64,000 nucleotides of DNA, taken from an uncultured Bacteroidales bacterium. GTDB lineage: Bacteria > Bacteroidota > Bacteroidia > Bacteroidales > UBA932. Below are positions 2,157-63,385 of this stretch, piece after piece; within the stretch, counting starts at the first letter, position 1; the number at the start of each line of letters is the position of its first letter. The notes beneath the pieces were generated by a model. It searched no databases, had not been told where the DNA came from, and was given only the letters and a program-made list of their open reading frames with translations. The DNA is taken from NCBI GenBank assembly GCA_946185205.1, contig CAMHIP010000001.1, positions 630-64,629 of the forward strand, written 5' to 3'. Position numbers and translations under genes: made by a program.

Positions 2157-4268
2157 ATGAAGAAAGTATTATTGACCGTTGCCACCGCCCTGCTGCTGAT
2201 GCCGGCCGCCCTGCGCGCCGACGAGGGAATGTGGCTCCTGCCGCTGCTCGAAAAGATGAACAGCGACGCCCTGCGCAACCTCGGCTCCCGCCTCACCCCG
2301 GAGCAGATCTACAGCGTCAACCACGCTTCCATCAAGGATGCCATCGTCCAGTTCGGCGGCGGCTGCACCGGCGAGATCATCTCGGGCAGCGGCCTGCTGG
2401 TGACCAACCACCACTGCGGCTACGGCAACATCCAGGCCCTTTCCTCCACGGAGCACAACTACCTGGAGGACGGCTATTTCGCCATGTCCCGCGAGGAGGA
2501 GCTGCCCTGCCCGGGCCTCACGGTCCGCTTCCTGCAGAGCATGACCGACGTGACGGACGATCTCGCCGCCGGCAAGAGCCGCCAGGAACTGATCGCCGCG
2601 GCCGAGCAGGCGAATCCGAACTGCCAGGTGCGCATCGTCAGCTTCTACAACGACAACGTCAACTACCTGATCGTCTCCAAGATCTACCGCGACGTCCGCT
2701 TCGTGGGCGCCCCGCCGGCATCGTCCGGCAAATTCGGCGGCGATACCGACAACTGGATGTGGCCGCGCCACACCTGCGACTTCTCCATGTTCCGCGTCTA
2801 TGCCGGGGCGGACAACGAGCCGGCCGACTACTCCCCCGACAATGTCCCGATGCGCCCGCGCCAGTTCCTGAACATCTCGCTCAAGGGCGTGCAGGAAGGC
2901 GATTTCGCCATGATCATGGGCTACCCGGGCAGCACGCAGCGCTTCCAGACCGCCGCGCAGCTTCAGGACATGCTGAACAACAATGACGTCCGCATCGCCG
3001 CCCGCGGCGTGCGCCAGGACGTCCTCTGGAAAGCCATGCGCGCCGACGAGAAAGTGGGCCTGCAGTATGCCAGCAAGTATTCCGGCTCCTCCAACGGCTG
3101 GAAGAAGTGGATCGGCGAGAAGGAAGCCTTCGAGGCCCTGGACATCATCGGCCGCGAGGAGCAGAAGGAGCGTGAGCTGAACGCCTGGATCGGCGCCGAC
3201 GCGGGCCGCAAGACCGCCTGGGGCAACGCCATTTCGCGCATTGCCGACAACGTGCAGCAGACGGCCGAAGCCAAATATGCCGGCACCCTGCTCACCGAGA
3301 CCCTGGGCCGCATCGAGATCCTCAACTTTGCCGCCACGCTCGCCAGCGTGCCCCGGATGATCACCCGGATGCGCGAGCAGAACCCCGACGCGCAGATCGA
3401 CGAAGAGGCGGTTTACAAGGAGCTGATGGACGCCATCCGCGAGGAGTACAAAGACTACGACGCCTCCGTGGACCGCGACGTGGCCATCGCCATGATCGAC
3501 CACTACAAGGCCCACGTCAACCCGGCCGACGCCGTGCTGATCAAAGGCAAGAGCATCCTCACGCAGGACACCCGCAAGCTGGTCGACAACATCTTCAAAA
3601 AGAGCATCTTCACCTCGGAGGAGAAACTTATGGCCAAGCCCGTCACCGAGAAAATGCTCGCCGCCGACCCGGCCGTCCAATTCGCCGATGCCGTGACGGC
3701 GGCCGCCCAGCCGCTCTCGCAGGCGCTTATGTCCGGCCGCCAGGACCTCGCCGACGCGTCCCGTGCCTACGGCGCCGCCCTGCTCAAATGGAACGAGGGC
3801 AAGCCCAGCTATCCCGACGCCAACAGCACCTGCCGCCTCACCTACGGCACCGTCAAGAGCTACGAGCCCAAGGACGGCGTACTTTATAAATACTACACGA
3901 CCCTCAAGGGCGTGATGGAGAAGGAAGACCCGGACAACTACGAGTTCCGCGTCCCGGCCAAGCTGAAGGAGATCTGGGAGAAGAAGGATTTCGGCCAGTA
4001 TGCCAACGAGAAGGGCGAGGTCGTGGCCTGCTTCCTGACCAACCTCGACATCACGGGCGGCAACTCCGGCAGCCCGGTGATGGACGCCGACGGCAACCTG
4101 ATCGGCCTGGCCTTCGACGGCAACTGGGAAGCGATGAGCAGCGACGTGATGTTCGAGCCCAACCTGCAGCGCTGCATCTGCGTGGACATCCGCTATGTCC
4201 TGCTGATGGTGGACAAGTTCGCCGGCGCCGGCTGGCTCCTGAATGAAATGAATCTTGTAAGAGAATAA
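2157..4268 (+). CDS. S46-family dipeptidyl peptidase (DPP7-like)
   Basis: Signal peptide then DEGMW, TNHHC, DNWMWPRH and catalytic TGGNSGSPV. AFDGNWE has Gly at the S1 position (DPP7 type) rather than Arg (DPP11 type). Confidence 0.92.
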   Translation: MKKVLLTVATALLLMPAALRADEGMWLLPLLEKMNSDALRNLGSRLTPEQIYSVNHASIKDAIVQFGGGCTGEIISGSGLLVTNHHCGYGNIQALSSTEHNYLEDGYFAMSREEELPCPGLTVRFLQSMTDVTDDLAAGKSRQELIAAAEQANPNCQVRIVSFYNDNVNYLIVSKIYRDVRFVGAPPASSGKFGGDTDNWMWPRHTCDFSMFRVYAGADNEPADYSPDNVPMRPRQFLNISLKGVQEGDFAMIMGYPGSTQRFQTAAQLQDMLNNNDVRIAARGVRQDVLWKAMRADEKVGLQYASKYSGSSNGWKKWIGEKEAFEALDIIGREEQKERELNAWIGADAGRKTAWGNAISRIADNVQQTAEAKYAGTLLTETLGRIEILNFAATLASVPRMITRMREQNPDAQIDEEAVYKELMDAIREEYKDYDASVDRDVAIAMIDHYKAHVNPADAVLIKGKSILTQDTRKLVDNIFKKSIFTSEEKLMAKPVTEKMLAADPAVQFADAVTAAAQPLSQALMSGRQDLADASRAYGAALLKWNEGKPSYPDANSTCRLTYGTVKSYEPKDGVLYKYYTTLKGVMEKEDPDNYEFRVPAKLKEIWEKKDFGQYANEKGEVVACFLTNLDITGGNSGSPVMDADGNLIGLAFDGNWEAMSSDVMFEPNLQRCICVDIRYVLLMVDKFAGAGWLLNEMNLVRE

Positions 4269-5338
4269 TGATCAGTAGAGAAGACATTCTGCAGGCCCTG
4301 CGGGAAGTGCACCATCCCGCCCGCCAGGACCGTGACATCGTGGAGCTCGGGATGGTCTCCGACGTGGAGATTTCGGAGGAAAAGGTCACCGTCACCCTCG
4401 GTTTCCCGAAACGGCGCGACCCCCTGACCGAATACCTCGTGGGCAGCGCCCGGGCGGCCCTCATCCGCCACCTTCCCGACTCCGTGGCATCGGAGGTCAA
4501 GGCCGTGGTGGTCGAGGAGGACAAGCCGAAGAAGAAGGGCCTCGCGCTCGGGCTGGAGCAGCTCGCCGAGGTCCGGCACATCGTCGGCATCGCCTCCGGC
4601 AAAGGCGGCGTCGGGAAATCCACCGTAGCCGTCAACCTCGCCTGCGCGCTCGCGCGGATGGGATACAAGGTCGGCCTGGCCGATGCGGACGTGTATGGTC
4701 CTTCCGTGCCCGTGATGACGGGGACGGAAGGCGCCGTGCCTGCCGCGGAGCCCGGCCCGGAGGAGGGTCAGGAGCTCATCCTTCCGCTGGAGAAATATGG
4801 CGTGAAGTGGATGTCCATCGGGTATTTCGCGGAGCGGGGCCAGGCCCTGATCTGGCGCGGTCCGATGGCCTGCAACGCCCTCAAACAGATGATCCTGCAG
4901 GTCAAGTGGGGGCCGCTCGACTTCCTGCTCATCGACATGCCCCCGGGCACGGGCGACATCCACATTTCGCTTGTGCAGGACATCCCGATGGAGGGTGCCG
5001 TGATCGTCACGACCCCGCAGACGGTGGCCCTGGCCGACGTGGAGAAGGGGGTCAACCTGTTCCGCAACGAGAATGTGAACCGGCCGATCTTCGGCCTGGT
5101 CGAGAATATGTCGTGGTTCACGCCGGAGGAGCATCCGGACGAGAAGTACTATATTTTCGGCCGCGACGGCGGCGCGCAGATGGCCCGCGGGCTGGGCATC
5201 GACCTGCTGGGGCGCATTCCGCTCGTGCAGGGCATCCGCGAGAGCGGCGATGCCGGCGAGCCGGTGGCCCTGGGCAGCCGTCCCGATTCTCTCGCTTTCC
5301 TCGAACTGGCCGGCAAGCTGGCCGAAAAGCTCGGCTAG
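4268..5338 (+). CDS. Mrp/NBP35 (ApbC) Fe-S cluster carrier ATPase
   Basis: SGKGGVGKST, DADVYGPS, WRGPM, DMPPGTGD, TTPQ and ENMS motifs. Confidence 0.93.
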   Translation: MISREDILQALREVHHPARQDRDIVELGMVSDVEISEEKVTVTLGFPKRRDPLTEYLVGSARAALIRHLPDSVASEVKAVVVEEDKPKKKGLALGLEQLAEVRHIVGIASGKGGVGKSTVAVNLACALARMGYKVGLADADVYGPSVPVMTGTEGAVPAAEPGPEEGQELILPLEKYGVKWMSIGYFAERGQALIWRGPMACNALKQMILQVKWGPLDFLLIDMPPGTGDIHISLVQDIPMEGAVIVTTPQTVALADVEKGVNLFRNENVNRPIFGLVENMSWFTPEEHPDEKYYIFGRDGGAQMARGLGIDLLGRIPLVQGIRESGDAGEPVALGSRPDSLAFLELAGKLAEKLG

Positions 5339-6239: not shown

Positions 6240-7889
6240 ATGAAAAAATCCTTTCACCTCCTTCTGATGGCCGCTGCGGCCCTCTTCAGCGCCTGCAACG
6301 GCGGCTCCGGCAACGGCACCGCCGAGCTCGGCTACGACCCGGATGCCCAGCAACTCCTGATCGGCGAAGACATCGCCGTGGTCCGGACCACCTACGGCAC
6401 CGTCAAAGGTTTCATCTACCAGAATGTCAACACCTTCCTGGGCATTCCCTACGGTGATGACACCAGCGGCGAGAACCGTTTCATGCCCCCGAAACCCCCG
6501 AAGCCCTGGGAGGGCGTCCTGCCCACGGTCTGGTACCCGACCTCGGCCCCGCAGCGCCCCTACACCGAGGGGGCCACGCCCTACGCCCAGTTCCGCGACC
6601 GCTGGAACTATGACGGTTTCGGCGAAGACTGCCTCAAGCTCAATGTCTGGACACCCGGACTGGATGCCGCCAGGCGGCCTGTCCTCGTGTGGCTGCACGG
6701 CGGCGGCTTCTCGGCCGGCAACGGCGTGGAGCAGGACGGCTATATGGGCGGCAATTTCGCCCGGCGGCACGACGTGGTGTTCGTGTCCCTCAACCACCGA
6801 CTCAACAGCTTCGGTTTCAGCGATTTCGCCGCGGTCGGCGGGGAGAAGTACAAGCACTCCGGCAACGTCGGCATGCTCGACATCATCTTCGCCCTCCAGT
6901 GGGTACACGACAACATCGCGGCCTTCGGCGGCGATCCGGGAAACGTGACCATCATGGGCCAGAGCGGCGGCGGCTCGAAAGTGACCATCGCAGCGGCCAT
7001 GCCTGCCGCCAAGGGACTGGTCCACAAGGCCTTCGCCATGAGCGGCGGCTCCGTGGCCGCCGGCGACAAGGCCTATGCCGAAGGGCTGGGCGCGCAGATC
7101 CTCAAGACCGCCGGGCTCAAGCCTTCGCAGATCGACAAGCTGCAGCAGATGCCCTGGCCGGAGTATTTTGCCCTGGCGAACAAGGCGGCCGCCGAGTACA
7201 ACGCCTCCCTGCCTGCCGGACAGCGCTACCGGGGATTCAGCCCCGTGGCGGACGGCGTGGACATCCCCCTCGGCGACTTCTACACCTCCGGCCGCGACGA
7301 CGTCCCCTGCGTGCCGATGATGCTCTCCACGACCACCAACGAATTCGTCTCCGACCGCGATACGCCCGAGCAGGAGAAACTCACCCGGGAAGATATCGTG
7401 AAGATGATGGAGCGCAGCTACGGGGAAAAATCCGGCGCCATCTACGACGAATTCGACCGGATCTTCCCCGGCAACAGCCCCTTCGGCGTCTATTCCATCG
7501 TGAGTTCGTCCCGGCAGAACGTCATCCGCATCGCCAACAACAAGCTTGCGCAGGGCCAGCCGGTCTATCTGGCCTGGTTCAACTGGTATCCGCACATCTT
7601 CGACGGCCTGCCCCGGGCGTTCCACTGCCTGGACATCAGCTTCTGGTTCAACAACACGGACCTGATGTACTCCCACTCCGGCGGCGGCAAGGAGCCGCGC
7701 GACCTCGCCGACAAGATGGGCGACGCGCTGGAGGCCTTCATGCGCACCGGCGACCCCAATACCGGCAAGAAGGGCGGACTGCCCCACTGGCCCCGCTACA
7801 CGCAGGAAGAAGGCGCCACGATGATCCTGAACAATGTCTCCCGCGTGGAGAACGATCCGGACCGTGCGGCCCGCGCCCTGATGGAATAA
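6240..7889 (+). CDS. Type-B carboxylesterase lipoprotein
   Basis: Lipobox FSAC; FLGIPY, EDCLKLNVW, HGGG, FGGDPGNVTIMGQSGGG nucleophile elbow; AFHCLD. Confidence 0.9.
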   Translation: MKKSFHLLLMAAAALFSACNGGSGNGTAELGYDPDAQQLLIGEDIAVVRTTYGTVKGFIYQNVNTFLGIPYGDDTSGENRFMPPKPPKPWEGVLPTVWYPTSAPQRPYTEGATPYAQFRDRWNYDGFGEDCLKLNVWTPGLDAARRPVLVWLHGGGFSAGNGVEQDGYMGGNFARRHDVVFVSLNHRLNSFGFSDFAAVGGEKYKHSGNVGMLDIIFALQWVHDNIAAFGGDPGNVTIMGQSGGGSKVTIAAAMPAAKGLVHKAFAMSGGSVAAGDKAYAEGLGAQILKTAGLKPSQIDKLQQMPWPEYFALANKAAAEYNASLPAGQRYRGFSPVADGVDIPLGDFYTSGRDDVPCVPMMLSTTTNEFVSDRDTPEQEKLTREDIVKMMERSYGEKSGAIYDEFDRIFPGNSPFGVYSIVSSSRQNVIRIANNKLAQGQPVYLAWFNWYPHIFDGLPRAFHCLDISFWFNNTDLMYSHSGGGKEPRDLADKMGDALEAFMRTGDPNTGKKGGLPHWPRYTQEEGATMILNNVSRVENDPDRAARALME

Positions 7890-7891
7890 AC

Positions 7892-8530
7892 TCAGACGTC
7901 GAACCCCCCGAAATAATAAAAAGCGGGAGAAGCGAAAGCGAACAGCCCTGTCTCGTGAAAGAGGCAGGACAGTCGGATCATGCCCATTTCCACGGTCTTG
8001 GGGACCTTGACGAAATAAATGTCCTCATCGATCTCTTCCTCCTGGTAAACCGTGCATCCATATTGCCGGGCCAGCGCTTCCAGCTGGTTGAAGGTCGTGG
8101 TGGCATTCAGCTTCACTGCGAAATTGTCCGATGCAGCCAGGTAGTCATCGCCTGAGCCCAGCATATAGGACACGGACTCGACGCCGTCCATATCCCGGAA
8201 AGCATGGAATGTATTCCGGGAGATCCGTCCGCCCGACTGCAGGACGGCGAATGCCTCATCCCCGCTCCCATCAAACGTATTATCACCCCAGCCCATCCGG
8301 CTATGGTATGTCCAAGGGTGAAGGGACGGGGCACTCTCCAGAATCTGCTGTTTCCGGGCTTCCGGAAGTCCCTTCCGGAACTGGATGAACAGCATGTCCC
8401 GCCGCTCCGTGAGATAGATCTTCTCATTGAAATAGTAGTAGAACAAGCCGTTGTTTTCCAACTTGGAACATCCCGCTGCCAGAAGCAGCAGCGGGATGAC
8501 CAGCCCAATCAATGGAGTACGCAATCGCAT
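7892..8530 (-). CDS. Hypothetical lipoprotein resembling the N-terminal pro-region of Bacteroidota S8 proteases, without a catalytic domain
   Basis: Lipobox AAGC; FYYYFNEKIYL and FHETGLFAFASPAF segments; visibly lower GC than its neighbours. The resemblance is from memory. Confidence 0.65.
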   Translation of the reverse strand: MRLRTPLIGLVIPLLLLAAGCSKLENNGLFYYYFNEKIYLTERRDMLFIQFRKGLPEARKQQILESAPSLHPWTYHSRMGWGDNTFDGSGDEAFAVLQSGGRISRNTFHAFRDMDGVESVSYMLGSGDDYLAASDNFAVKLNATTTFNQLEALARQYGCTVYQEEEIDEDIYFVKVPKTVEMGMIRLSCLFHETGLFAFASPAFYYFGGFDV

Positions 8531-8609
8531 ATAAATATTATTCCTTTTCTTCCATAACGTCGTCGCTGTCCAAAAACTGCCCGCTTCCGTTTATAAAATA
8601 CGTTTGACC

Positions 8610-8695
8610 GTCGTCGAGGGTCCACCAGTTGGACCCTCAACGGCATTTTGGGGCTATTTTGCTGTCGAGGGTCCTTTGTCTGTACCCTCAACAGC
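8610..8695. repeat. Palindrome doublet A1 (51-bp period)
   Basis: GTCGAGGGTCC-accagtt-GGACCCTCAAC (8613-8641) and GTCGAGGGTCC-tttgtct-GTACCCTCAAC (8664-8692), linker containing ATTTTGGGGCTATTTT. The second unit encodes the YfhO C-terminus. Confidence 0.85.
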
Positions 8696-11149
8696 ATTTT
8701 TCTTCCGAAGGGACGGGAGGGCGGCGCCGAGGACGGCACCGAGCGCGGCGAGCAGCAGGAGGATGGAGGTGGCGCGGGAGATGGCCTCGCCCCGGCGGTA
8801 GGACGGCGGATCGAAGCGCATTACCAGGTCATGCTCGCCGGCCGGGACCTGCGCCGCGCGCAGCAGCGTGCCTTCCAGCTCGATCGGGATCACCTCGCCG
8901 GTGTCCGCTACGGTCAGGGTCCAGCCCACGGGATAATAGACTTCGCTGAAAATCAGCCGCGCAGCCTCGGGCGTGTTGTAGTGGTAGCGCAGCTCGTTGG
9001 GGGCGTAGGAGGTCAGGGTGACGCGGGGAGATTCGCCGGCGAATGACGAAGGAACATCGAACCAGGCGTTCCCCTTGGCGTAGGGATAGCGCAGCGGGGG
9101 CATCTCTCCGTCCAGGATGATGTACCGGCAGTTCATCTGCGCGAGCCCCGGAAGGTACGGCAGGGCGGCTTCGGCTTCTTCGACCGTCTTGGCCTCGCCG
9201 AGGGCTTTGGCGAGCTGGTTGATTTCGCCCGTGAGGGTGCTTTCGATAAATTCCTGATAACGTTGGAGTTTGGCGGGCGAATAGCCGCCGATGTTCTTGT
9301 GCCAGTAGGACGGGTGGGAGTCGTTGAAGATGTTGACCGTCAGGTCCAGGACGCGGAACGAAGGGTCCGTGTCGGAGAGGATCATCTCATCGACGGGGCG
9401 CTTGTTGAACTGGCTCTGGAAGGAGCGCGGGGAGACGAAGTCGCCCGCACCCAGGTAGCGCTTGCCCGCAAGGCCCAGGTCGAGCAGGATCAGGAAGGCG
9501 ATCAGCAGACTGGCCGTCAAGCGGCGTCCGCGACCCATCTCAGGCTGCGTAGCAAAGGTCTTCGGGGCGTTCTTCGGAACGGAAGTCCCCCACCACAGCA
9601 GCCCGAACGCCCCGCCGATCAGCGCCAGCGAGCGCAGCGCGTCCATCACCAGCAGGTGCCGCCGGTCGGCCGCGAGAGCATCCACGAGCACATCCGGCTG
9701 GCCGGCATCCACGCTCCCGCTGAAGGTCCCGGCGATGCCGGGGAACAGCACGCAGAGCAGGCAGAAGCCGCCGGTGATCGCTGCGGCGATCCAGCCCTTC
9801 TCCCGGAAGAGAGCGGCCGCGTCCGGCTGCTTCACGATGCGGTCCAGCACCAGAAAGCCCAGCATCGGCAGGGTGAACTGCAGCACCACCAGCGCCATCG
9901 AGACCGTCCGGAACTTGTTGTAGAGCGGCGCGACGGCGTAGAAGAATTTCGTGAACGCGAGGAAATGGCTGCCCAGGGCGAGCAGCACGGCGAGGATCGT
10001 CCCCGCAATGAGCCACCCCTTCTCCTTTCCCTTGAAGGCGAACAGGCCCAGCACGAAGAGGAAGATGGTGATGGCACCCATGTACATCGGCCCGGCCGTG
10101 AAGGGCTGCGGGCCCCAGTAGAGCGGAAGGCTCTTGGAGACTTCCTTCAGGTTGGGCTGCCCGGCCCGCTTGAGCAGGTCGTAGGTCTCGGAGTGTTTCG
10201 GGTTGACCGCCCCGGCGGAAGAGCCGCCGTTGAAGTTGGGAATCAGCAGGTTGGGCAGTTCCTCCCAGCCGTAGGACCAGGCCGTGGCGTAGTCGAGGTC
10301 GAGCCCTTTGGTGCCTGCGCCGCCTTCGGAAGCCGCCGTGCTGCCGCCTCGCATGGAGTAGGGGGTGTATTCCATCGTGGGGAGGAGCTTGGTGGCGTTG
10401 GTGGCGATGCCCGCGACGCCCAGGACCAGCAGCAGCGCCGAGGCGGTGAAGAAGCGGCCCCATTTCGTCATTCCCGGCCCGGCCGGGGCGTCTTTCCGGA
10501 AGAGGTCCACCACCAGCACGATCACGTAGATCAGGATCAGCAGCGCCAGGTAGTAGGTGATCTGGGGATGGTTGGCCTTGACCTGGAAACTCAGCGCCAG
10601 GCCGAACAGCGCCGCCCCGAGGACGGTGCCCGGCAACCAGGACTTCTTTTTGATTTGATTATAAGTGAAGATCAGCGCTGCGAGGACCCAGGGGAGGAAG
10701 GCGAGGGCCTGCATCTTGGTGTTGTGGCCGACCTGGATGATCTGCAGGTTGTAGGAGCAGAAGGTCACGGCAATGGCGCCGCCGACGGCGATGAGCGGAT
10801 GGATCCCCAGCGCGAGCATCAGCAGCCAGGCGCCCAGCAGCGAGAGGAACAGATACGTGGCCGGGCGGCGTCCCAGCAGCAGGAAATCATAGATTTTCTG
10901 CGTCCAGTCCCCTTTCGTGGAGGCGTGGATCGTGGCCGTCGGCATGCCGCCGAACATCGACTCGGTCCAGGCCGTCTGGTCGTCGGGGTGGGCGGCGTTC
11001 CACTCCATCATCTCGTGCGACATGCCCTGCCAGCCGGAGATGTCGCTCTGGTTGACGATCTTGCCGCTCAGCACCTGGGGCACATAAGCATAAGAAAGGG
11101 CGAGCAGGCCGACCACGATGGCGGCGTACAGGAGGATTTTCTTTTTCAT
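8654..11149 (-). CDS. YfhO-family polytopic membrane protein (GT-C-like)
   Basis: QSDI...WTESMFGGMP, GHNTK, HPQITYY, YWGPQPFTAGP, NKFR and GGYSPAKLQRYQ motifs; many TM segments. Confidence 0.88.
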   Translation of the reverse strand: MKKKILLYAAIVVGLLALSYAYVPQVLSGKIVNQSDISGWQGMSHEMMEWNAAHPDDQTAWTESMFGGMPTATIHASTKGDWTQKIYDFLLLGRRPATYLFLSLLGAWLLMLALGIHPLIAVGGAIAVTFCSYNLQIIQVGHNTKMQALAFLPWVLAALIFTYNQIKKKSWLPGTVLGAALFGLALSFQVKANHPQITYYLALLILIYVIVLVVDLFRKDAPAGPGMTKWGRFFTASALLLVLGVAGIATNATKLLPTMEYTPYSMRGGSTAASEGGAGTKGLDLDYATAWSYGWEELPNLLIPNFNGGSSAGAVNPKHSETYDLLKRAGQPNLKEVSKSLPLYWGPQPFTAGPMYMGAITIFLFVLGLFAFKGKEKGWLIAGTILAVLLALGSHFLAFTKFFYAVAPLYNKFRTVSMALVVLQFTLPMLGFLVLDRIVKQPDAAALFREKGWIAAAITGGFCLLCVLFPGIAGTFSGSVDAGQPDVLVDALAADRRHLLVMDALRSLALIGGAFGLLWWGTSVPKNAPKTFATQPEMGRGRRLTASLLIAFLILLDLGLAGKRYLGAGDFVSPRSFQSQFNKRPVDEMILSDTDPSFRVLDLTVNIFNDSHPSYWHKNIGGYSPAKLQRYQEFIESTLTGEINQLAKALGEAKTVEEAEAALPYLPGLAQMNCRYIILDGEMPPLRYPYAKGNAWFDVPSSFAGESPRVTLTSYAPNELRYHYNTPEAARLIFSEVYYPVGWTLTVADTGEVIPIELEGTLLRAAQVPAGEHDLVMRFDPPSYRRGEAISRATSILLLLAALGAVLGAALPSLRKKNAVEGTDKGPSTAK
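9029..9047 (-). repeat. Collapsed CGTC-type REP remnant inside yfhO
   Basis: Minus strand (C)GTCATTCGCCGGCGAATCT: the REP termini GTCAT...ATCT without the central loop. Confidence 0.5.
10467..10493 (+). repeat. Degenerate CGTC-type REP inside yfhO
   Basis: (C)GTCATTCCCGGCCCGGCCGGGGCGTCT; encodes DAPAGPGMT in a loop between TM helices. Confidence 0.55.
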
Positions 11150-12489
11150 GGAAGGATCTGGATCAGTTGCGCCGTGAGGGCGCGGCGGGTGTATTTCTCG
11201 ATGCCGGTCGTCTCCGGATGCGGCGCATCCAGGAAGGCCGTCAGTTCTTCTTTCTTGTCCCAGTCGAACATCTGTCCGGCCCCGGCGTCGCGCAGGATCT
11301 GCGCCGCGGCGCCGTCTTCCTGGCCGATACCGAGCACGGGACGCCGGGCGGCGAGGTATTCGAAGATCTTGCCGGGCAGGACCTTGGCGTATTCGGGCTC
11401 CTGCCGCAGGGGCAGCAACAGGATATCGGCGGCACGCTGCTCGCGCACCGTCTCGTCGTGGGGCAGGTAGCCGAGTTCGACGAGGTTGGCGCCCAGGCCG
11501 CGCCCGCGGATGGCGTCCGTGACGGCGCGGTCGACCTTGCCGGCGAGGCGGATCTGCAGACGCTCCCGGAAGGCGGGGTCGGCCCCGCAGCGCTCGGCGA
11601 GCGCATCCCAGAGGTTCAGGGGATTGCCGTCCGCGGCGAAGAGGCCGGTGTGGACGAGGCGGAAGAATGGGAGGTCGGGAGCGGCAGTGCCCCCGTGGAG
11701 CAGTTCTCCCGGACAGGGTCGGGCGTCAGCGGAGCGTAGCCCGATAGCGGAACGGGGGCAGCTGCCGCTCTGACCGGAATTCTCCGGGAAATCATCTTCG
11801 TCAAAGCCGTTCGTTATCAACACGACCGGCGTGCGCGTCTTGGCCCGGAAATCGGCGGCGACGGGCGGACTGACACTGACCACGGTATCGGCGGCGTCGA
11901 GCACCGCCTGCTCCAGGCGGCGGTGCCGCCGGTCCGCGGCGCGCGAGAGCCCGAGATGCTTGTAGTAGAACATCTCCGTCCACGGATCCCGGAAATCGGC
12001 AATCCAATGCAGCCCAAGGGCTTTTTTGAGGCCCAGGCCGATGAGGTGCACCGACTGCGGCGGACCCGTGGTCACGACGGCATCGACGGGATGCTCCTTC
12101 AGGTATTTCTTCAGATAGCGCACCGACGGGCGCACCCAGCCGATCCGCGGATCGGGGATGAAGCAGTTGCCCCGGATCCACAGCGAGAGGCGCTGTTTCC
12201 AGCTCTTCTTCTGCGCGTTGACGGGGTTGACCTCCTGCCCCGCCTTGCCGCCGGTCAGGCGGCGGTAGATCTCGTAGGGCTCGGTGATGTGCGTCTTGAT
12301 GACTTCCGCGCAGGCGGGGATGTCGGCGAGCAGGCTCTCGTCGCGCGCAAGTTGCTCGGGATTCTCCGGCGTGTAGATCACCGGCTGCCAGCCGTGCTCC
12401 GGCAGGTACTTGCTGAACTTTACCCAACGCTGGACCCCCGATCCGCCGGTCGGGGGCCAGTAGTAGGTGATGATCAGCAGCCGTTTCAC
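11146..12489 (-). CDS. Glycosyltransferase family 4 with a palindrome-derived insertion
   Basis: ITYYWPPTGGSGVQR, TTGPP, DFRDPW, NGFD and PGKIFEYL motifs. GTG start overlaps the upstream TGA. Confidence 0.9.
   Translation of the reverse strand: MKRLLIITYYWPPTGGSGVQRWVKFSKYLPEHGWQPVIYTPENPEQLARDESLLADIPACAEVIKTHITEPYEIYRRLTGGKAGQEVNPVNAQKKSWKQRLSLWIRGNCFIPDPRIGWVRPSVRYLKKYLKEHPVDAVVTTGPPQSVHLIGLGLKKALGLHWIADFRDPWTEMFYYKHLGLSRAADRRHRRLEQAVLDAADTVVSVSPPVAADFRAKTRTPVVLITNGFDEDDFPENSGQSGSCPRSAIGLRSADARPCPGELLHGGTAAPDLPFFRLVHTGLFAADGNPLNLWDALAERCGADPAFRERLQIRLAGKVDRAVTDAIRGRGLGANLVELGYLPHDETVREQRAADILLLPLRQEPEYAKVLPGKIFEYLAARRPVLGIGQEDGAAAQILRDAGAGQMFDWDKKEELTAFLDAPHPETTGIEKYTRRALTAQLIQILP
11673..11775. 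repeat. About 103-bp palindromic element inserted in frame in the GT4 gene
   Basis: Arms GGTCGGGAGCGGCAGTGCCCCCGT (11673-11696) and ACGGGGGCAGCTGCCGCTCTGACC (11752-11775); internal hairpin TCGGGC...GCCCGA. Confidence 0.8.
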
Positions 12490-13760
12490 CGCTTGTAACC
12501 TTCGATGTTGGCCTTGACGGTCTCCCAGTCGTAGTAGGGGCCCTGGACCGGCTTGAGGCCGCGCAGCAGACGCTCCTGCTCCTGGTAGAGGAACTTGACG
12601 AGCACGCGTCCGGCCTTGTTGCGGTAGAAGATCATCTGCAGGTTGCTGGCCATCGGGATGTTCCAGAATCCCAGCCAGTTGTTGCAGACATCCTTGACCT
12701 CCAGGCGGTCGCCCACGCCCTCGATGCCGAGGTAGCTGACCAGCGCCATCAGCGGATAGTCGTGGCCGAAGCGCAGGTCGGCGGCATATTTGCCCGTGGC
12801 GATGGCCTCGTCGGCCTTCGTCACGATGTCATCCACGGTGGGCTTCGCCATCGGGACGCGCTGCGCGCCCACGGCGGCGGAATTGCAATGGCCCAGGTAG
12901 AGGAAGAGGTTGTTCTGCGCCCAGCGGCGGTAGATCGCATCGAAGGGCAGGAAGCGGTAGAGGTCCTCCTCGATGTCGAAGTCCTCGGCCACGACGGCCG
13001 TGTTGAAGACCTTCTCCGTCAGGCGGCGGGGGCTGTCCACGAAGGTCAGCGCCTTGTCAACGTCGGTGAAGAGGCGGCTCAGCACGCCGAGCGTGTCGTC
13101 CGGCACCTGACGCATCCACTCAAAGCTCTCGCGCATCGCGTTGCCGGTCACCTGCTGCCAGCCCTCGGTCGGGTCGATGTATTTCATGAACTGCTCGCCC
13201 GTGTCCAGCCGGATGTTCAGCTCCTTGTCCTGGCGGATCAGCGAGTTGGTGAAGGCGTTCATGCTGATGATGCAGCGCTGCACCGTGCTCGCGTAGGCGC
13301 GGATATTTTTATGATTCTCAAAGACTTCCGGATAGCGGTGGTACATCCGCTCGGCCAGGGCCGCATGCTCGCGTGCGCCGCGCTGCGACAGGCGCCCGTC
13401 CATCCCGTCGTAGCTCTCCAGCACCTTGCGCGCCGCCACGCGCAGCGAATCGCCGCCGGGCGTGAGGATGCCCAGGCCCTTGCCCACCTCCAGGGTGCGG
13501 ATCAGGTCTTCGTAGTCCTTGCCGCCCCAGTTGGAGCGGGAACCGTGACGGCCGTAGTGGCTGATATAGAAGGGCGTGTAACCCTTCGGCGCCGGCGTGT
13601 CCTTCAGCTCGAAGAACTCATAGGAGTTGAGATTGTTGCCGGCGCGGGTCGGCTCGGCCTGCAGGGCGCGGACGGCCGCCTCGGAGCGCCAGGGCTGGGC
13701 AGAGGCCGCTGCGGAAAGGAGCGTCAGCAGGGCAGTCAGGATGAGGGATCTTGTCTTCAT
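12486..13760 (-). CDS. Histidine acid phosphatase (clade 2), secreted
   Basis: Signal peptide; HYGRHGSR and RFGHD catalytic motifs. Confidence 0.9.
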   Translation of the reverse strand: MKTRSLILTALLTLLSAAASAQPWRSEAAVRALQAEPTRAGNNLNSYEFFELKDTPAPKGYTPFYISHYGRHGSRSNWGGKDYEDLIRTLEVGKGLGILTPGGDSLRVAARKVLESYDGMDGRLSQRGAREHAALAERMYHRYPEVFENHKNIRAYASTVQRCIISMNAFTNSLIRQDKELNIRLDTGEQFMKYIDPTEGWQQVTGNAMRESFEWMRQVPDDTLGVLSRLFTDVDKALTFVDSPRRLTEKVFNTAVVAEDFDIEEDLYRFLPFDAIYRRWAQNNLFLYLGHCNSAAVGAQRVPMAKPTVDDIVTKADEAIATGKYAADLRFGHDYPLMALVSYLGIEGVGDRLEVKDVCNNWLGFWNIPMASNLQMIFYRNKAGRVLVKFLYQEQERLLRGLKPVQGPYYDWETVKANIEGYKR

Positions 13761-13820
13761 AAACAGTCAGAATGGTCTTATCTGACAAAGATAACGATTT
13801 CTTCAATCAAATGGAAGCCC

Positions 13821-13960
13821 GGCCTCGCGGAAGAGGCCAGATCGAGCGCTACGGGGGGCTCCAAGAAAGGGCCCTCCTCGCGCTCGACTGTTGCCTGTGC
13901 CATCACCCGAAATGTCCAACCTTAACTTTTGGGACGAAATCCATCACCCCAAATGTCCAC
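13821..13960. repeat. Cluster of hairpins and a 41-bp-period direct repeat
   Basis: TCGAGCGC...GCGCTCGA stem (13842-13887); CCATCACCC(G/C)AAATGTCCA at 13900-13918 and 13941-13959. Confidence 0.7.
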
Positions 13961-13966
13961 ATGACC

Positions 13967-14041
13967 CAAACTGTTGGTGGCGTCGGAAGTCACGTTGCCG
14001 TTGGCGTCACAGGAGGTGATGTCCTCGTACGAGGTGGTTCC
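13967..14041 (-). pseudogene. 25-codon RHS/YD-repeat fragment
   Basis: Translates GTTSYEDITSCDANGNVTSDATNSL (yDANGNvTSD motif); its last residues match the first residues of the RHS fragment starting at 15981. Confidence 0.6.
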
Positions 14042-14044
14042 CCT

Positions 14045-14130
14045 GTCGTTAAGGGTCCCGGGATTGGACCCTCAAAAGCATTTTGGGCCCTTTTTGCCGT
14101 TGAGGGTCCATCTGCTGGACCCTCAACAAC
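14045..14130. repeat. Palindrome doublet A2 (51-bp period), same family as 8610-8695
   Basis: GTTAAGGGTCC-cgggatt-GGACCCTCAAA (14048-14076) and GTTGAGGGTCC-atctgct-GGACCCTCAAC (14099-14127); linker ATTTTGGGCCCTTTTT. Confidence 0.85.
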
Positions 14131-14132
14131 AT

Positions 14133-14174
14133 CAGCGTCGCCCTTGATTGCAATTTGCTTCAGGGGCGACGCTG
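14133..14174. repeat. Inverted repeat (REP- or terminator-like)
   Basis: CAGCGTCGCCCTTGA-N12-TCAGGGGCGACGCTG. Confidence 0.7.
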
Positions 14175-14193
14175 GAAGAAGGATGTGTCCGGA

Positions 14194-14559
14194 CTATCCG
14201 GGGATCAGCCGGGTGGCTTCGGCGTTGTGGGAGACCCGGGCGAAGGGCTGGCGCCGGATGACGCGCAGCAGGGTCCGGTCGCGGGTGTCGCCGGGGGTGG
14301 CGACGCTGTCCAGCCAGTAGTAGGTATGGCCGGTGCGCTCGGCGAAGGCGTCAACCTCATAGATGACGAAGGGAAGCAGGTGAATCTCCGAGGTTGGGGA
14401 CAGCTTGACGCTGTCCGTCGGGAAGGCTCAGAGGTACTCCGTGACCCGGGCGTCCGGCCCGCTCTGGCGCTCCGCGAAGGTCACTACGCAGTAGTTGCCG
14501 GCGGAGGCGATGTTCCACTGGAGAGAAAGAATTAGATAGAAAACAAATGTATGTTTCAT
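14194..14559 (-). pseudogene. Secreted hypothetical protein interrupted by an in-frame TGA
   Basis: MKHTFVFYLILSLQWNIASA...VTEYL*(14428-14430)AFPTDSVK...RLIPG*. The same frame stays open for 77 more codons with host-like GC3. Confidence 0.55.
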
Positions 14560-14572
14560 AGTAGCTATAAGA

Positions 14573-14953
14573 CTATAAACATTTCTTCCAGAACAAGGTA
14601 GCTTGATAAACAAAATATGTCAAAATGAGAATACAACATACAGCAGTTGAATAAACACGATAATGTGAGGTAAAATGAACATTCCCAATCAAGCAATCGA
14701 TCACGATGAATACTAAAATACTTTTCCATATAAACACCCAGCATTGTCGTTGCAAATAGGTCATTCTCTCATATTGCATACTCTGTCTATCAAGGATAAA
14801 CCAGATAAAAAGAATGTCAATTGACCAAGAAGAAACTTCTATAACCCATGGATTTTCAAATATTGATGGGTAGAATAGACGAAAGCAACCTTTAAGGAAG
14901 TAAAACAGAACAAAACTATTAAATGGGAGAAGCGCTCTGAAATTTGGGCTCAT
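14573..14953 (-). CDS. Low-GC multi-TM protein, candidate immunity protein for the RHS C-terminal domain
   Basis: 126 aa with about 3-4 hydrophobic segments, AT-rich, directly downstream of the RHS C-terminus. Confidence 0.6.
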   Translation of the reverse strand: MSPNFRALLPFNSFVLFYFLKGCFRLFYPSIFENPWVIEVSSWSIDILFIWFILDRQSMQYERMTYLQRQCWVFIWKSILVFIVIDCLIGNVHFTSHYRVYSTAVCCILILTYFVYQATLFWKKCL

Positions 14954-15045
14954 AAAAAAGAGGATAACTTGTATTATTATCTAATATTAATTCCTCCTCG
15001 AAGTTAGTCTTATCCGATGGAGTTTCAAGGTCATTACTCTTTTCT

Positions 15046-15981
15046 CTATCTCCTGCGATCCATTTTTTTTATTTGTTCTTGGACAATGGGATGCTGATTA
15101 TCGAAGCAAAGAACAGTTGCGATAAAAAGGATTGCTGAGTATTTGTCCACTTTTGGAACGGGATCATTTGGATCCGGCAGATTATTATTCATGTTTTGCT
15201 GGTGTTTCAACATGATTTGTCGTGTCTCATCTTCAGAAAGCCGATCTTGTCTTCCTTGCCAACCCCCTTCGGGACTCCAATTCTTAAATCTAATATGACC
15301 ATCAGCGGATTTTTTCAAGATGATGCCCGTAGTTATGATGCCAAGACTGATGGCGGCAAAATCAAACGCGGCAGCGGCTGCCCCACCAAGGACAAATGGA
15401 TTCTTTCCCGAAGGATCCACAAATCGAATCGGATTATTACTACAATACGCATACGGACTCACGGCATAGTACTTCTCCGCCATCGGATCAATGGAGGTCC
15501 AGGCCGTGCGGTCGTAGAAGCGTGCACCGAAGTCACTGTAGGCAATGCCGAAGGCGTCCTGCTCCTCCTTTCCCGAGAAGCGCCAGCGGTTGTCCGAGAA
15601 CTGGGCCAGGCCGTTCGGATGGCGCGTCCCGAAAGGATAGTAGTCGTTCTGCTCGATGATGTTTCCGTTCGTCACGATGGCCCGCACGCTGCCCAGGTGG
15701 TCCGTGACATGGTAGTCCACCAGATAGGAACTGCCGCTCTTGCGGATGCGTCCTCCGCCGAAGGCCACGCTCTCCAGGGTCCTGGTCCCGTTGGCACCCC
15801 GGGCATACACAAAGGAGCCCACATAGTCCTTCCCGGCGCTGGCGGAGGTGTATGCCGCGGCTTTCGTCCCATCTGACAGGTATGTGTAGTTGGCTTTCAC
15901 GGTGCTTCCGGACTTGATCTGCGAAGGCAAGTTAAGCAAATTGCACGAGGATTGCAAGGAATTCGTGGCACCGGAGGTCAG
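15046..15981 (-). pseudogene. Orphan (5'-truncated) RHS repeat-associated core with a variable C-terminal domain
   Basis: NLLNLP, TDHLGSVR, DYYPFG, RFSGKE, DFGARFYD, DPMAEKYY and SPYAYCSNNPIRFVDPSG motifs; GC drops near 15460; no convincing start codon. Confidence 0.85.
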
Positions 15982-15986
15982 GCGGT

Positions 15987-16073
15987 GCGCGCCGCGTCCG
16001 TTTAGCACGGACGCAGCGGTCACTTTGGGCGGTTTTTTGCTCGCTGCGTCCGTCCGGCAGGGACGCAGCGTGC
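15987..16073. repeat. Palindrome doublet B (52-bp period): different stems, same linker as A1/A2
   Basis: CGCCGCGTCCG-tttagca-CGGACGCAGCG (15990-16018) and CGCTGCGTCCG-tccggca-GGGACGCAGCG (16042-16070); linker ACTTTGGGCGGTTTTTT. Confidence 0.85.
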
Positions 16074-16179
16074 AGTGAAGGACGGTGACCATTCCGCGGC
16101 GGATGTTTGACCGGAATGGAATGGTCGGGAAACGGGAGTTTTTGTTATTTTTGTACAGAATAACCAAACCACCACCGTT

Positions 16180-19100
16180 ATGCGAAAATTTCTCCTGTCC
16201 GCCGGTCTGTTGCTGACCGCCTGCGCCGCGCTTTCCGCCCAGCCGCTCATCAAGAGCTGGGAAGGGATCCAGCACGGCGATGTCCCCACCCTGGAGCAGA
16301 ACTATACCCTGCCGCCCGTCGAATACGCCAGCCACATCCTCTGGGGCTGGGAGGGCGCCATGGACGCCAAGATCATGAAGCAGGACCTGGACCTGATGCA
16401 GAGCGTGAACACGCGCATGATCAACATCGAGCCGGGCTATGATTTCCCTTATGAGTACCTCTCCGACGGCTGGTGGAAGATGGTCAAGATGGCCGTGGGC
16501 GAGGCGAAGAAGCGCGGGATGAAGGTCTGGCTCATCGACGACGCCAAGTACCCGAGCGGCTTCGCCGGAGGCAAGTTCTCCCGCGAGCGGCCCGACCTCA
16601 AGATGTGGGCCCTGATCCGCCTGGACGAGGCCTGGGAGGTCCCCGCAGGCGGGGAGTTCGCGGACCGGGAGGTGCCGCAGGGCGCCGTGAGCGCCGTGGC
16701 GGAATGCCCCGGACAGGCCAACCGCCAGCTGGAGATCCGGGACGGAAAACTCACGTTCAACGCGGGCGTCCACCCCTGGACCATCCATTTCGCGGGCTTC
16801 GCCCACAAGAGCGGCGACACCCGCTCGGTGAGCCATCCCACGCACGGCAAGGACACCTCCAACTTCCTGCACGACCACCTCAACCCGGCGGCCGTCGATC
16901 AGTTCATCGAATGGACCCACGCCGCTGCCGCCAAAGCCCTCGGCAAGGAGATGGGGCAGACCGTGATGGGCTTCCGCGGCGACGAGCCGGAATATATGTA
17001 CACCCCCTGGACCCCGAAGATGAAGGAGATCTTCATGGAGAAAAAGGGGTATGACCCCACCCCGTACTACGCCTCCTTCTTCTCCCCCACCCGCACCGAG
17101 CAGGAGAAGCGCGTGAAGGCGGATTACTTCGACGTGTGGTCGGAGCTGTTCGCGGACAACTTCTTCAAGCGCCAGGCCGACTGGCTGGGAGCGCGCGGGA
17201 TGGCGCACATCACCCACCTCAACAACGAGCACCAGATGCCCGTCAACATCGAGGCCAACGGCGATTTCTTCCGGGTGCTCAACCGCGTGCAGATCCCGGG
17301 CGTGGACGTGATCAGCAACCACGTGGCCCCCGGCGTGGACAACGATTTCCCGAAGCTGGCCTCGTCGGTGAGCCACGTCTATGGCAAGCCGCGCGCCTTC
17401 TCCGAGACGATGGGCGCCGTGCGGGGGGACCTGAAGACCAGCAAGCAGGTGCTGAACTACCAGTTCGTGCGCGGCATCAATTATTTCGAGTACAACTTCT
17501 GGAGCAGCAAGTCGCAGACGGCGGAGTCGCTCTCGAAGCGCCCGCACATGGCGGAGCTGACGGACTACATCAACCGCACTTCCTACCTCCTGTCGATGGG
17601 CACGCCGGGCGCGCGCGTGGCGATGTACTACCCCATCCGGAGCATGTGGCTGGGCAACAACCAGGTCTATTGGGACCTGTCGGAGCTCTCGCAGCTGCTC
17701 ATGATCCACCAGACGGACTTCGACTACGTGGATGACGACGCCTTCTGGGAGGCCCTGACGGTGGGCCCCGGCTATCTGGAGAACAAGAGCGGCCAGAAAT
17801 ACTACACGCTCATCATCCCGCCCGCAGACGTGATCTCAGAGCGGGCCTGGGCCGTGATCGAGGAGTTCGTCTCGCTGGGAGGCAAACTGCTCTTCTGGGG
17901 CAGCCGGCCCTCCTGGCTGGCGGGCCGCACTTTCACCGAGCTGAAACCCTTCCCCGACTGCCCGCAGGCCACCTACGAGCCGCTGCGCCGCTGGACGGAG
18001 CAGGTCCGCGCGGCCCTGCCCGAACCGGAACTGCGCATCCTCGCGGAGCGCCCGGAAGGCAGCTACCTGACGGGGCCGGAGTCGCCCTGGCGCGTACAGC
18101 CGCGGCCCGCGCCGCAGCGTCCGGCAGCCGCACAGCCCGCCCGGCAGAACCGCCCGGTGAATTCGCAGGCCTGGGTGACCATCGAGTCGTTCAAGCGCCA
18201 GATGGGCCTGACCGAGGTCATCATTCCCACCGACAGCATCCGTTACACGCACCGTACGCTGGATGACGGCGAACTCTATTTCCTCTTCAACGAAGGCGAA
18301 CGGAAGCAGACCTTCACGGTCGAATTCGACGCCACGGGCATCGTCCGGCAGTGGGACGGCTTCACCGGGAAGGTGCAGCATGTCCCGGCCCGCATCCAGG
18401 ACGGCAAGACCGTGCTGGAAGTGACCCTGGACGGCTACGACAGCGCCATCTTCACCATTTCCAAGGGACACGGGACCTACAACGTCCGCGATTTCGGCGC
18501 CACGGGCGACGGGCAGACGCCCGACACCAGGGCCCTGCAGGCCGCCGCGGATGCCGCCTACGCCGCGGGCGGCGGCACGGTGGTGATCCCGGCCGGCACC
18601 TACCTGTCCGGGGCGCTCTTCTTCAAGAACGGCGTCGATCTGGAGATCCGGGAAGGGGCCGTGCTGCGCTCCACCCTCGACTCCGACGACTTCCCGCAGA
18701 TCTCCACCCGCTTCGAGGGGATCGAGCACAATTTCCGCTGCGCGCTGCTCAACTTCGACCATTCGCGCGGCGTGCACGTCTATGGCGGCGGCCTGATCGA
18801 CGGGCGCGGCCAGGAATGGCGCGAGGTCCAGAACAAGGACGGCCACTGGGGCCGCCCGCGCATGCTCTGCTTCACCGACTGCCCCGGCGGGCACATCGAG
18901 CACCTGACGATGCTCAACCACGCCTCGTGGTGCCTGCACGTGCTCTACACCGACGGCTTCGAAATCAACGACCTGCATATCAGCGTGTCGTCCTATGTCC
19001 CGAGTTCCGACGGCGTGGACATCGACTCCTCGTCCAACATCTGGATGCACGACGTTTATACCAACGTCACGGACGACTGCCTGTCCATCAAGAGCGGCAA

Positions 19101-63332: not shown

Positions 63333-63380
63333 TGCTGCCGGTGTCCCTCCCTTGGGGACACCGGCAGCACTTTTCGTTTT
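63333..63380 (+). terminator. Intrinsic terminator after galK
   Basis: TGCTGCCGGTGTCCC...GGGACACCGGCAGCA followed by CTTTTCGTTTT. Confidence 0.75.
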
Positions 63381-63385
63381 GCAGA

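Follow-up and report, generated by a model that had tools for sequence, protein, structure and literature searches.

The window analysed here, a 64,000-nt stretch of contig CAMHIP010000001.1 from an uncultured Bacteroidales bacterium (assembly GCA_946185205.1), contains three units in which two palindromes are joined by a short T-rich linker. We refer to these units as doublets. They are probably non-autonomous hairpin repeats of the repetitive extragenic palindrome/bacterial interspersed mosaic element (REP/BIME) type, and their likely cognate enzymes are transposases encoded elsewhere in the genome that resemble the REP-associated tyrosine transposases (RAYTs; Y1 enzymes with an HUH motif). 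There is likely to be roughly one divergent enzyme paralogue per family of hairpin arms. The initial annotation of the window had mentioned REP/BIME hairpins as a comparison, and this part of it was borne out by ∼17 dispersed loci with conserved structure and by a Y1/HUH gene flanked by them. Its main proposal, that the doublets shuffle RHS toxin modules, was not supported.

Hairpin doublets in the window and across the genome

All three doublets have one orientation and two hairpins each, with arms of 14-15 bp and hairpin centres 51-52 bp apart (Table 1). The linker reads CA(T/C)TTT, then 4-6 mostly G/C bases, then TTTTTGC. Since it is T-rich on one strand only, the hairpin pair is oriented. 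The chance expectation for the doublet core pattern in the window is 0. Folded as single-stranded DNA (ssDNA), each doublet gives two separate hairpins, with z scores of -4.8 to -5.5 against shuffled sequences. The geometry given in the initial annotation was largely confirmed: the common orientation, the paired palindromes, the period and the linker hold for all three doublets, and doublet 3 keeps the geometry, the linker and a GTCC/GGAC stem top on different arms. The arms had been put at ∼11-14 bp with a 7-nt loop of variable sequence. The loops do differ in each copy, but the 7-nt length holds only for family A, the family-B doublet having loops of 9 nt.

In the source assembly (G000; 2.06 Mb, 157 contigs, 62% GC, 78% complete), repeat loci were located with nhmmer, a structural scan and a covariance model (R1), the last being a whole-genome check that had been proposed with the initial annotation. 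The names given to homologous proteins, and the public runs in which the sequence occurs, point to uncultured Bacteroidales of ruminant guts as its source. We found ∼17 loci in four arm families, A to D. The loci are dispersed and all are intergenic, save that doublet 1 overlaps the last ∼15 codons of one open reading frame (ORF). Common to the four families are the stem foot TGC/GCA, the stem top GTCC/GGAC and the T-rich linker (CATTTT..TTTTTGC), while the loops are unconstrained in sequence.

An alignment of 15 sequences supports the earlier suggestion that structure is conserved rather than sequence. Both stems covary strongly, with 20 of 30 stem pairs changed on both sides, and 84% of cells were paired compared with 30-43% when the partner was slid. 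Stem mismatches showed no strand bias (39 G:T and 49 A:C). Because the two kinds are equally common, the symmetry of the palindromes is kept at the level of DNA and not on one RNA strand.

The initial annotation had allowed that copies scattered with no enrichment at variable-gene junctions would be ordinary REPs or terminators. About 12 of the ∼17 loci adjoin housekeeping genes, and we therefore class the doublets as REP-type elements, of atypical design. Neighbours include EF-G, a peptidase/ATP-grasp protein, QueH, an ABC ATPase, an Omp85-like protein, LpxL, a 2-hydroxyacid dehydrogenase and DUF1015. In or beside the QueH gene (locus L003, G000:C16, ∼4200-4360), a 45-65-nt segment matches many places in two other genomes, G014 and G044 (85-98% identity), and the Pfam QueH match falls into two separate parts here. 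This segment may represent a further dispersed repeat family with an insertion in the gene or next to it, comparable to the in-frame hairpin inserts reported in rsmA and GT4 in the initial annotation.

The window itself has a fourth member, overlooked in the initial annotation: a family-C hairpin with its linker, lying between genes that converge on it from either side in our reading of the raw sequence. A related inverted unit had also been proposed at 13900-13960. This candidate was rejected, as it falls within the coding frame of a small RHS remnant, scores at best -1.3 bits against the covariance model with filters off (no match) and folds no better than shuffled sequences (z -0.03). A scan of 7500-17000 against Rfam at E <= 1 gave chance-level matches only.

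RAYT-like genes between doublets

A search for a Y1/HUH gene flanked by the same motif, which had likewise been proposed, was positive. At G000:C111:2820-3680, a gene of lower GC content that codes for 286 aa has a family-A doublet on each side, the two in direct orientation. Both doublets sit within a 133-nt repeat, and a third, inverted doublet is found 2 kb away. The first-hairpin loops at 2610-2646 and 3723-3759 of this contig (locus L001) are exact reverse complements of each other, ACGCCCG and CGGGCGT, with identical upstream flanks, suggesting occasional flipping of the loop by inversion within the hairpin.

The match of the N-terminal 130 residues of the C111 protein to NCBIfam NF047646 (REP-associated tyrosine transposase) spans positions 10 to 145 of the 146 in the model; its E-value is 1e-7, and values among homologues reach 2e-10. 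The HUH and Tyr motifs are intact: SNHxH and AYxxxN are invariant in 11 homologues. An AlphaFold (AF2) model of the protein (pLDDT 85.8) had as its top match in the PDB 4ER8, in which the E. coli REP transposase is complexed with a REP hairpin; next came the TnpA proteins of ISDra2, IS608 and IS200. The C-terminal 150 residues form a helical domain. Look-alikes of this half in the Atlas gave weak leads to HTH_23, HTH_28 and Bac_DnaA_C (family-bearing matches <= 0.88), and sequence searches of the PDB with the whole protein and with a C-terminal profile returned nothing usable.

Paralogues 26-58% identical to the C111 protein are encoded on contigs C21, C19 (truncated), C143 (cut by the contig end) and C40. 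The window contains none of these RAYT-like genes, in agreement with the earlier statement that it encodes no cognate enzyme. The closest homologue in another species is 59% identical, and near-identical copies of the gene were not found.

The linkage of gene and repeat extends across the genus. Flanking repeats of 30-255 nt were present at 20 of 32 homologue loci, and at 17 of these 20 they measured at least 70 nt. Where the homologue is at least 38% identical, the repeats are two-hairpin doublets with the same linker and arms of their own, and the doublets that bracket a RAYT-like gene are mostly direct repeats on the coding strand. At one locus (L021, G021:C7) the gene lies between arrays of four and three hairpins (1273-1456 and 2914-3047) with a 52-bp period and a linker that is not T-rich. 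In a survey of 60 further species of the genus, 13 of the 14 genomes with a close homologue (E < 1e-60) had strong R1 matches (best E <= 1e-5), and 3 of the remaining 46 had R1 matches at best E <= 1e-8, one of these three having a close homologue cut by a contig end; the genomes are related, the counts are not phylogenetically independent and the contrast is descriptive rather than a formal test.

This dependence among genomes is one of several points that weigh against reading the doublets as REP-type repeats served by RAYT-like enzymes. The NF047646 scores of 32-41 bits are far under the equivalog cut-off of 80, and the protein is therefore a distant relative and not an equivalog; scores against Pfam Y1_Tnp (17-24 bits) border the cut-off of 23, and the usual Pro is missing from the Tyr motif in many members. 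As to the repeats, ∼17 copies per genome is low against the hundreds of classical REPs, the doublet is asymmetric, unlike a REPIN-type inverted pair, and in the alignments the GTAG tag is absent and the stem foot reads TGC...GCA. A specific paralogue can be assigned to just two families, A (C111) and B (C143/C117); next to the C21 and C19 genes the doublets are decayed, and families C and D were linked to no particular paralogue in G000. Finally, contigs from four ruminant-gut studies (4 runs) bridge all three window doublets and show them fixed at these positions in this species, with no excised form, contigs being unable to reveal rare variants.

The same arrangement could be taken for an autonomous insertion sequence (IS) of the IS200/IS605 type, consisting of doublet, gene and doublet, with solo doublets as derivatives resembling miniature inverted-repeat transposable elements (MITE-like; PATE-like) or as excision joints. 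The mostly direct doublets on the coding strand do resemble IS200/IS605 ends, and the fold matches include TnpA of ISDra2 and IS608. We nevertheless consider an IS unlikely, given the lack of any near-identical gene pair within or between species and the divergence of the syntenic gene in the closest species (see below). The proteins also score only 13-17 bits against the NCBIfam IS200 model (cut-off 55), well below their scores with the RAYT model, their Tyr motif is Y-x3-N (class 2) and not Y-x3-Q, and tnpB was not seen among the flanking genes examined.

Doublet sites in relatives and the RHS neighbourhood

We compared the doublet sites with those of the closest relative, G014; identity in the flanks is 85-91%. 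The doublet-1 site is empty in G014, measuring 20 nt compared with 115 nt in G000, and the lipoprotein and YfhO-like genes are both present and adjacent. In G000, the original stop region of the minus-strand YfhO-like ORF has given way to doublet 1, which supplies ∼15 further codons and a stop (8654-8656); the protein of the doublet-less relative ends ...LRRR and then stops. Over the last ∼20 nt, the flanks of the empty site are too diverged to fix the boundaries or the target of insertion. In G044 (locus L073, G044:C128, ∼455-495), the segment orthologous to 8590-8704 of the window, downstream of the YfhO-like gene, contains one GTCC-N7-GGAC hairpin whose arms are of an additional type.

The doublets of two further sites, on C79 and C16, are also absent from G014, with gene order conserved. 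Unrelated long, near-perfect hairpins stand in their place (L049 and L078, on G014:C42 and G014:C4, corresponding to G000:C79:4010-4220 and C16:3700-3880), and these spots seem to exchange hairpin elements, unless hairpins are themselves the targets of insertion. In more distant relatives the C79 site has almost no spacer.

Two larger differences were also seen. The block 13795-16100 of the window is missing from G014:C49, where the distance between the histidine phosphatase and GH106/GH28 genes is 142 nt, compared with 2468 nt in G000; in run X8, a related organism has a contig that likewise skips 13682-16245. At a family-B locus on G014:C56, the order is Omp85-like gene, doublet (+), RAYT-like gene, gene X, doublet (-), and the 2.3-kb segment between the doublets has opposite orientations in G000 (C143 into C117) and in G014. 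Given the empty sites, the indel and the inversion, we regard the doublets as lineage-specific occupants of intergenic DNA that coincide with rearrangement breakpoints. The initial annotation had expected breakpoints in relatives to map to the palindromes. This was the case for the 2.3-kb inversion, bounded by inverted doublets, and for the right border of the 2.4-kb indel; it did not extend to a shuffling of RHS modules.

The RAYT-like genes of the inverted segment (G000:C143:3265-3420 and G014:C56:3668-4513) are 46% identical over 52 comparable residues, and the flanking genes have 82-89% DNA identity. Such a gene has either evolved very fast or been replaced in place. Orthology of the RAYT-like genes of G000 and G014 was not upheld, their identity being 46-60% despite the similarity of the flanks.

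These sites also bear on whether the doublets are terminators or RNA-stabilising hairpins, selected by the host and repeated by happenstance. A T run follows hairpin 1, many copies lie just downstream of genes, and G014 has a different strong hairpin at the same C79 and C16 spots, all of which would suit such a role. On the other hand, the T-rich strand is split ∼3 to 3 with respect to the orientation of the upstream gene (a tally from flanking-gene scans) and doublet 3 lies in a divergent promoter region. Because the orientation is so evenly divided and doublet 3 stands between divergent genes, termination does not seem to be the primary nature of the doublets. The absence of a G:U versus A:C strand bias in the stems, the presence of doublets around RAYT-like genes, their co-occurrence with them and the lack of an Rfam match also argue against this explanation, which we hold to be quite unlikely. 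A secondary effect of the doublets on transcription termination is possible.

The genes around the doublets in the window are as follows. The region 8654-13760 codes for the YfhO-like membrane protein, a GT4 glycosyltransferase and the histidine phosphatase, and not for RHS. RHS material is confined to the minus strand, as an orphan module and a remnant of ∼35 codons near 13922-14040. Within the variable block are, besides doublets 2 and 3, the RHS remnant, the RHS orphan module and a low-GC immunity-like gene. Doublet 2 abuts the tiny RHS remnant. Doublet 3 lies at the right-hand edge of the block, where it separates the 5' end of the RHS orphan from the promoter of the GH106/GH28 gene. As stated in the initial annotation, the RHS orphan starts within 10 nt of a doublet (∼2 nt from doublet 3) and a doublet, here doublet 1, lies 80 nt upstream of the lower-GC lipoprotein gene at 7892-8530 (GC 0.548 compared with 0.635 for the window). 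A 126-aa ORF at 14155-14535 (+) has a GC content of 0.654 within the otherwise low-GC block and no Pfam match; it may be the remnant of another gene.

Table 1. Positions in the window of the doublets, the solo hairpin and the surrounding features, and the arm motifs of the four repeat families
Feature	Position	Strand	Arm motif	Loop	Details
Doublet 1 (family A)	8610..8696	+		7 nt	R1 85.5 bits; ssDNA fold; hairpin 1 8610-8644 (loop 8624-8630), T-rich linker 8645-8659, hairpin 2 8660-8696 (loop 8675-8681); site empty in G014
Doublet 2 (family A)	14044..14131	+		7 nt	R1 81.6 bits; ssDNA fold; hairpin 1 14044-14080, linker 14081-14094, hairpin 2 14095-14131
Doublet 3 (family B)	15986..16074	+	CTGCGTCC/GGACGCAG	9 nt	R1 75.3 bits; ssDNA fold; hairpin 1 15986-16022, linker 16023-16037, hairpin 2 16038-16074
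Solo hairpin (family C)	63333..63382	+	TGCTGCCGGTGTCC		Arms followed by linker-like CACTTTTCGTTTTGC; second hairpin absent; fold z -7.0
Variable block	13795..16100	.			Absent from closest relative G014; GC 0.514; context, not part of the repeat family
Candidate immunity gene	14573..14953	-			Hydrophobic 126-aa ORF; GC 0.336; downstream of RHS module; no Pfam match; context only
Orphan RHS C-terminal module	15046..15985	-			Core end with ...DPSGK boundary, then low-GC tail (translation); context only
Family A			GAGGGTCC	7 nt	
Family B			CTGCGTCC	9 nt	
Family C			CCGGTGTCC	9 nt	
Family D			TCAATGTCC	9 nt	

A second RHS orphan was found at C58:7705-7908, on a different contig from that of the window. 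It has 88% nucleotide identity to window 15755-15958 and the same core start (NLLNLP.QIKSGSTVKANYTYL), and the tails of the two orphans are low in GC and unrelated to each other. A tblastn search with the RHS fragment gave only this one other orphan and no full-length rhs gene in the 78%-complete assembly, and there is no doublet beside the C58 orphan.

The three doublet loci fall within 7.5 kb, for which P is ∼0.014 under random placement. Most simply, this clustering reflects local hopping into, or tolerance within, a decaying variable RHS region. It could also be cited, together with the position of doublet 3 at the border of the 2.4-kb indel holding the RHS orphan and the direct repeats that bracket RAYT-like genes as they would an integrated circle, in favour of double-stranded 14-7-14 core sites at which an undescribed tyrosine-recombinase or integron-like system would exchange RHS modules and lipoprotein genes as cassettes. 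This is very improbable: the spacer measures 7 nt in family A and 9 nt in the other three, a variation that fits hairpin recognition but not crossover at a fixed double-stranded site; the doublets on either side of the RHS module come from different arm families; the C58 orphan has no doublet; most copies adjoin housekeeping genes; and Pfam scans found no integrase among the flanking genes examined. Nor is the lipoprotein gene cargo, because it is present, at 91% identity, in G014, where the doublet site is empty; the gene hence predates the doublet. The view of the doublets as borders of RHS and lipoprotein cassettes is largely refuted, and their position beside the RHS orphans and the lipoprotein gene is best read as insertion into permissive, variable intergenic DNA and not as a dedicated function in RHS shuffling.

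If the doublets are REP-type repeats, a RAYT-like enzyme would bind the hairpins extruded on ssDNA, recognizing one or more of three features: GTCC/GGAC at the stem top, TGC/GCA at the foot and the T-rich linker. Cleavage and rejoining by the enzyme close to this site would now and then place a copy of a doublet at an intergenic position where hairpins are tolerated or already present. Once present, the ∼90-bp repeats could serve as substrates for inversion and deletion. The repeats would in this way be spread and maintained by a domesticated-looking Y1/HUH enzyme, with several divergent enzyme/repeat pairs in each genome.

A bolder version, which we think rather unlikely, is that RAYT-like enzymes of this genus use the doublets as true recombination sites and cut in the T-rich linker, thereby inverting or deleting nearby DNA and causing neighbouring modules, among them the RHS block, to be captured or lost. 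Were it true, this would be an HUH-based system of site-specific rearrangement rather than a passive repeat family, and REP-like repeats would be tied to a long, HTH-bearing RAYT subclass reported to have none.

The reading as REP-type repeats would explain a conspicuous repeat family of abundant, uncultured ruminant-gut Bacteroidales and would give a likely role to a large protein family labelled 'hypothetical' in databases. It would also extend the REP/RAYT idea to a design with no GTAG tag, oriented two-hairpin units and a long enzyme. In practice, the doublets break assemblies and mark hotspots of indels and inversions between close species. A new mechanism of RHS toxin diversification is not indicated by them.

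Comparison with REPtrons and related systems

The closest parallel is the REPtron, in which a RAYT (TnpA-REP) is associated with REP, BIME or REPIN sequences, as described for E. coli (YafM, 4ER8) and Pseudomonas (Quentin et al. 2018, PMC6006769; Di Nocera et al. 2013, PMC3733652; Bertels et al. 2017, PMC5581495). Like REPtrons, the system described here has short, dispersed extragenic palindromes that are often paired and have variable loops. It also has a non-duplicating Y1/HUH gene flanked by its own repeats, and gene and repeats appear to co-occur across species. The presence in one genome of several repeat families and divergent enzyme paralogues is shared as well, several divergent enzyme/repeat pairs per genome being a known REPtron pattern (PMC6006769, PMC3733652, PMC5581495).

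The differences lie in both the repeat and the enzyme. There is no 5' GT[AG]G tag; a TGC/GCA foot and a GTCC/GGAC top are found instead. Whereas a REPIN is one long inverted hairpin, the doublet has two separate hairpins and an oriented T-rich linker, and it resembles the head-to-tail-like REP pairs that are rare according to Di Nocera et al. (PMC3733652). Unlike in REPtrons, the gene is usually bracketed by direct and not inverted copies, the copy number is low (about 2-15 per genome, ∼17 in G000), and the enzyme, at 286 aa, is a long one that carries a helical C-terminal domain and a Y-x3-N-(C/S/P) motif.

With IS200/IS605 elements and their PATE/MITE derivatives, the doublet loci share a Y1 HUH enzyme and subterminal hairpins on the same strand at both sides of the gene. 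They differ from IS200/IS605 in that identical multi-copy elements were not found here, nor tnpB among the flanking genes examined, in the class-2 Tyr motif and in the better fit to the RAYT profile.

The BIME-1/RIP elements of E. coli consist of two REPs with a conserved, protein-binding linker. The doublets likewise have two hairpins and a conserved linker of fixed length; in contrast to BIME-1/RIP, their linker consists of two phased T tracts and their hairpins are not in the Y/Z inverted arrangement.

Two of the TnpA-Y1 subclasses defined by Quentin et al. 2018 (PMC6006769) were compared by description. In subclass 2.6 (group 5, Bacteroidetes), 'atypical secondary structures' flank the gene, and the proteins have a mean length of 179 aa and a YIH[QN]NP motif (PMC6006769). 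The host group and the structures flanking the gene agree with the present case, but the protein here is 286 aa long and has a different Tyr motif. Subclass 2.1 (Bertels group 1), for which no REP-like sequences were reported (PMC6006769), is similar in its NHVH motif, its long protein and a C-terminal extension that is perhaps HTH-like. In contrast to subclass 2.1 as described, the genes found here are accompanied by clear REP-like sequences.

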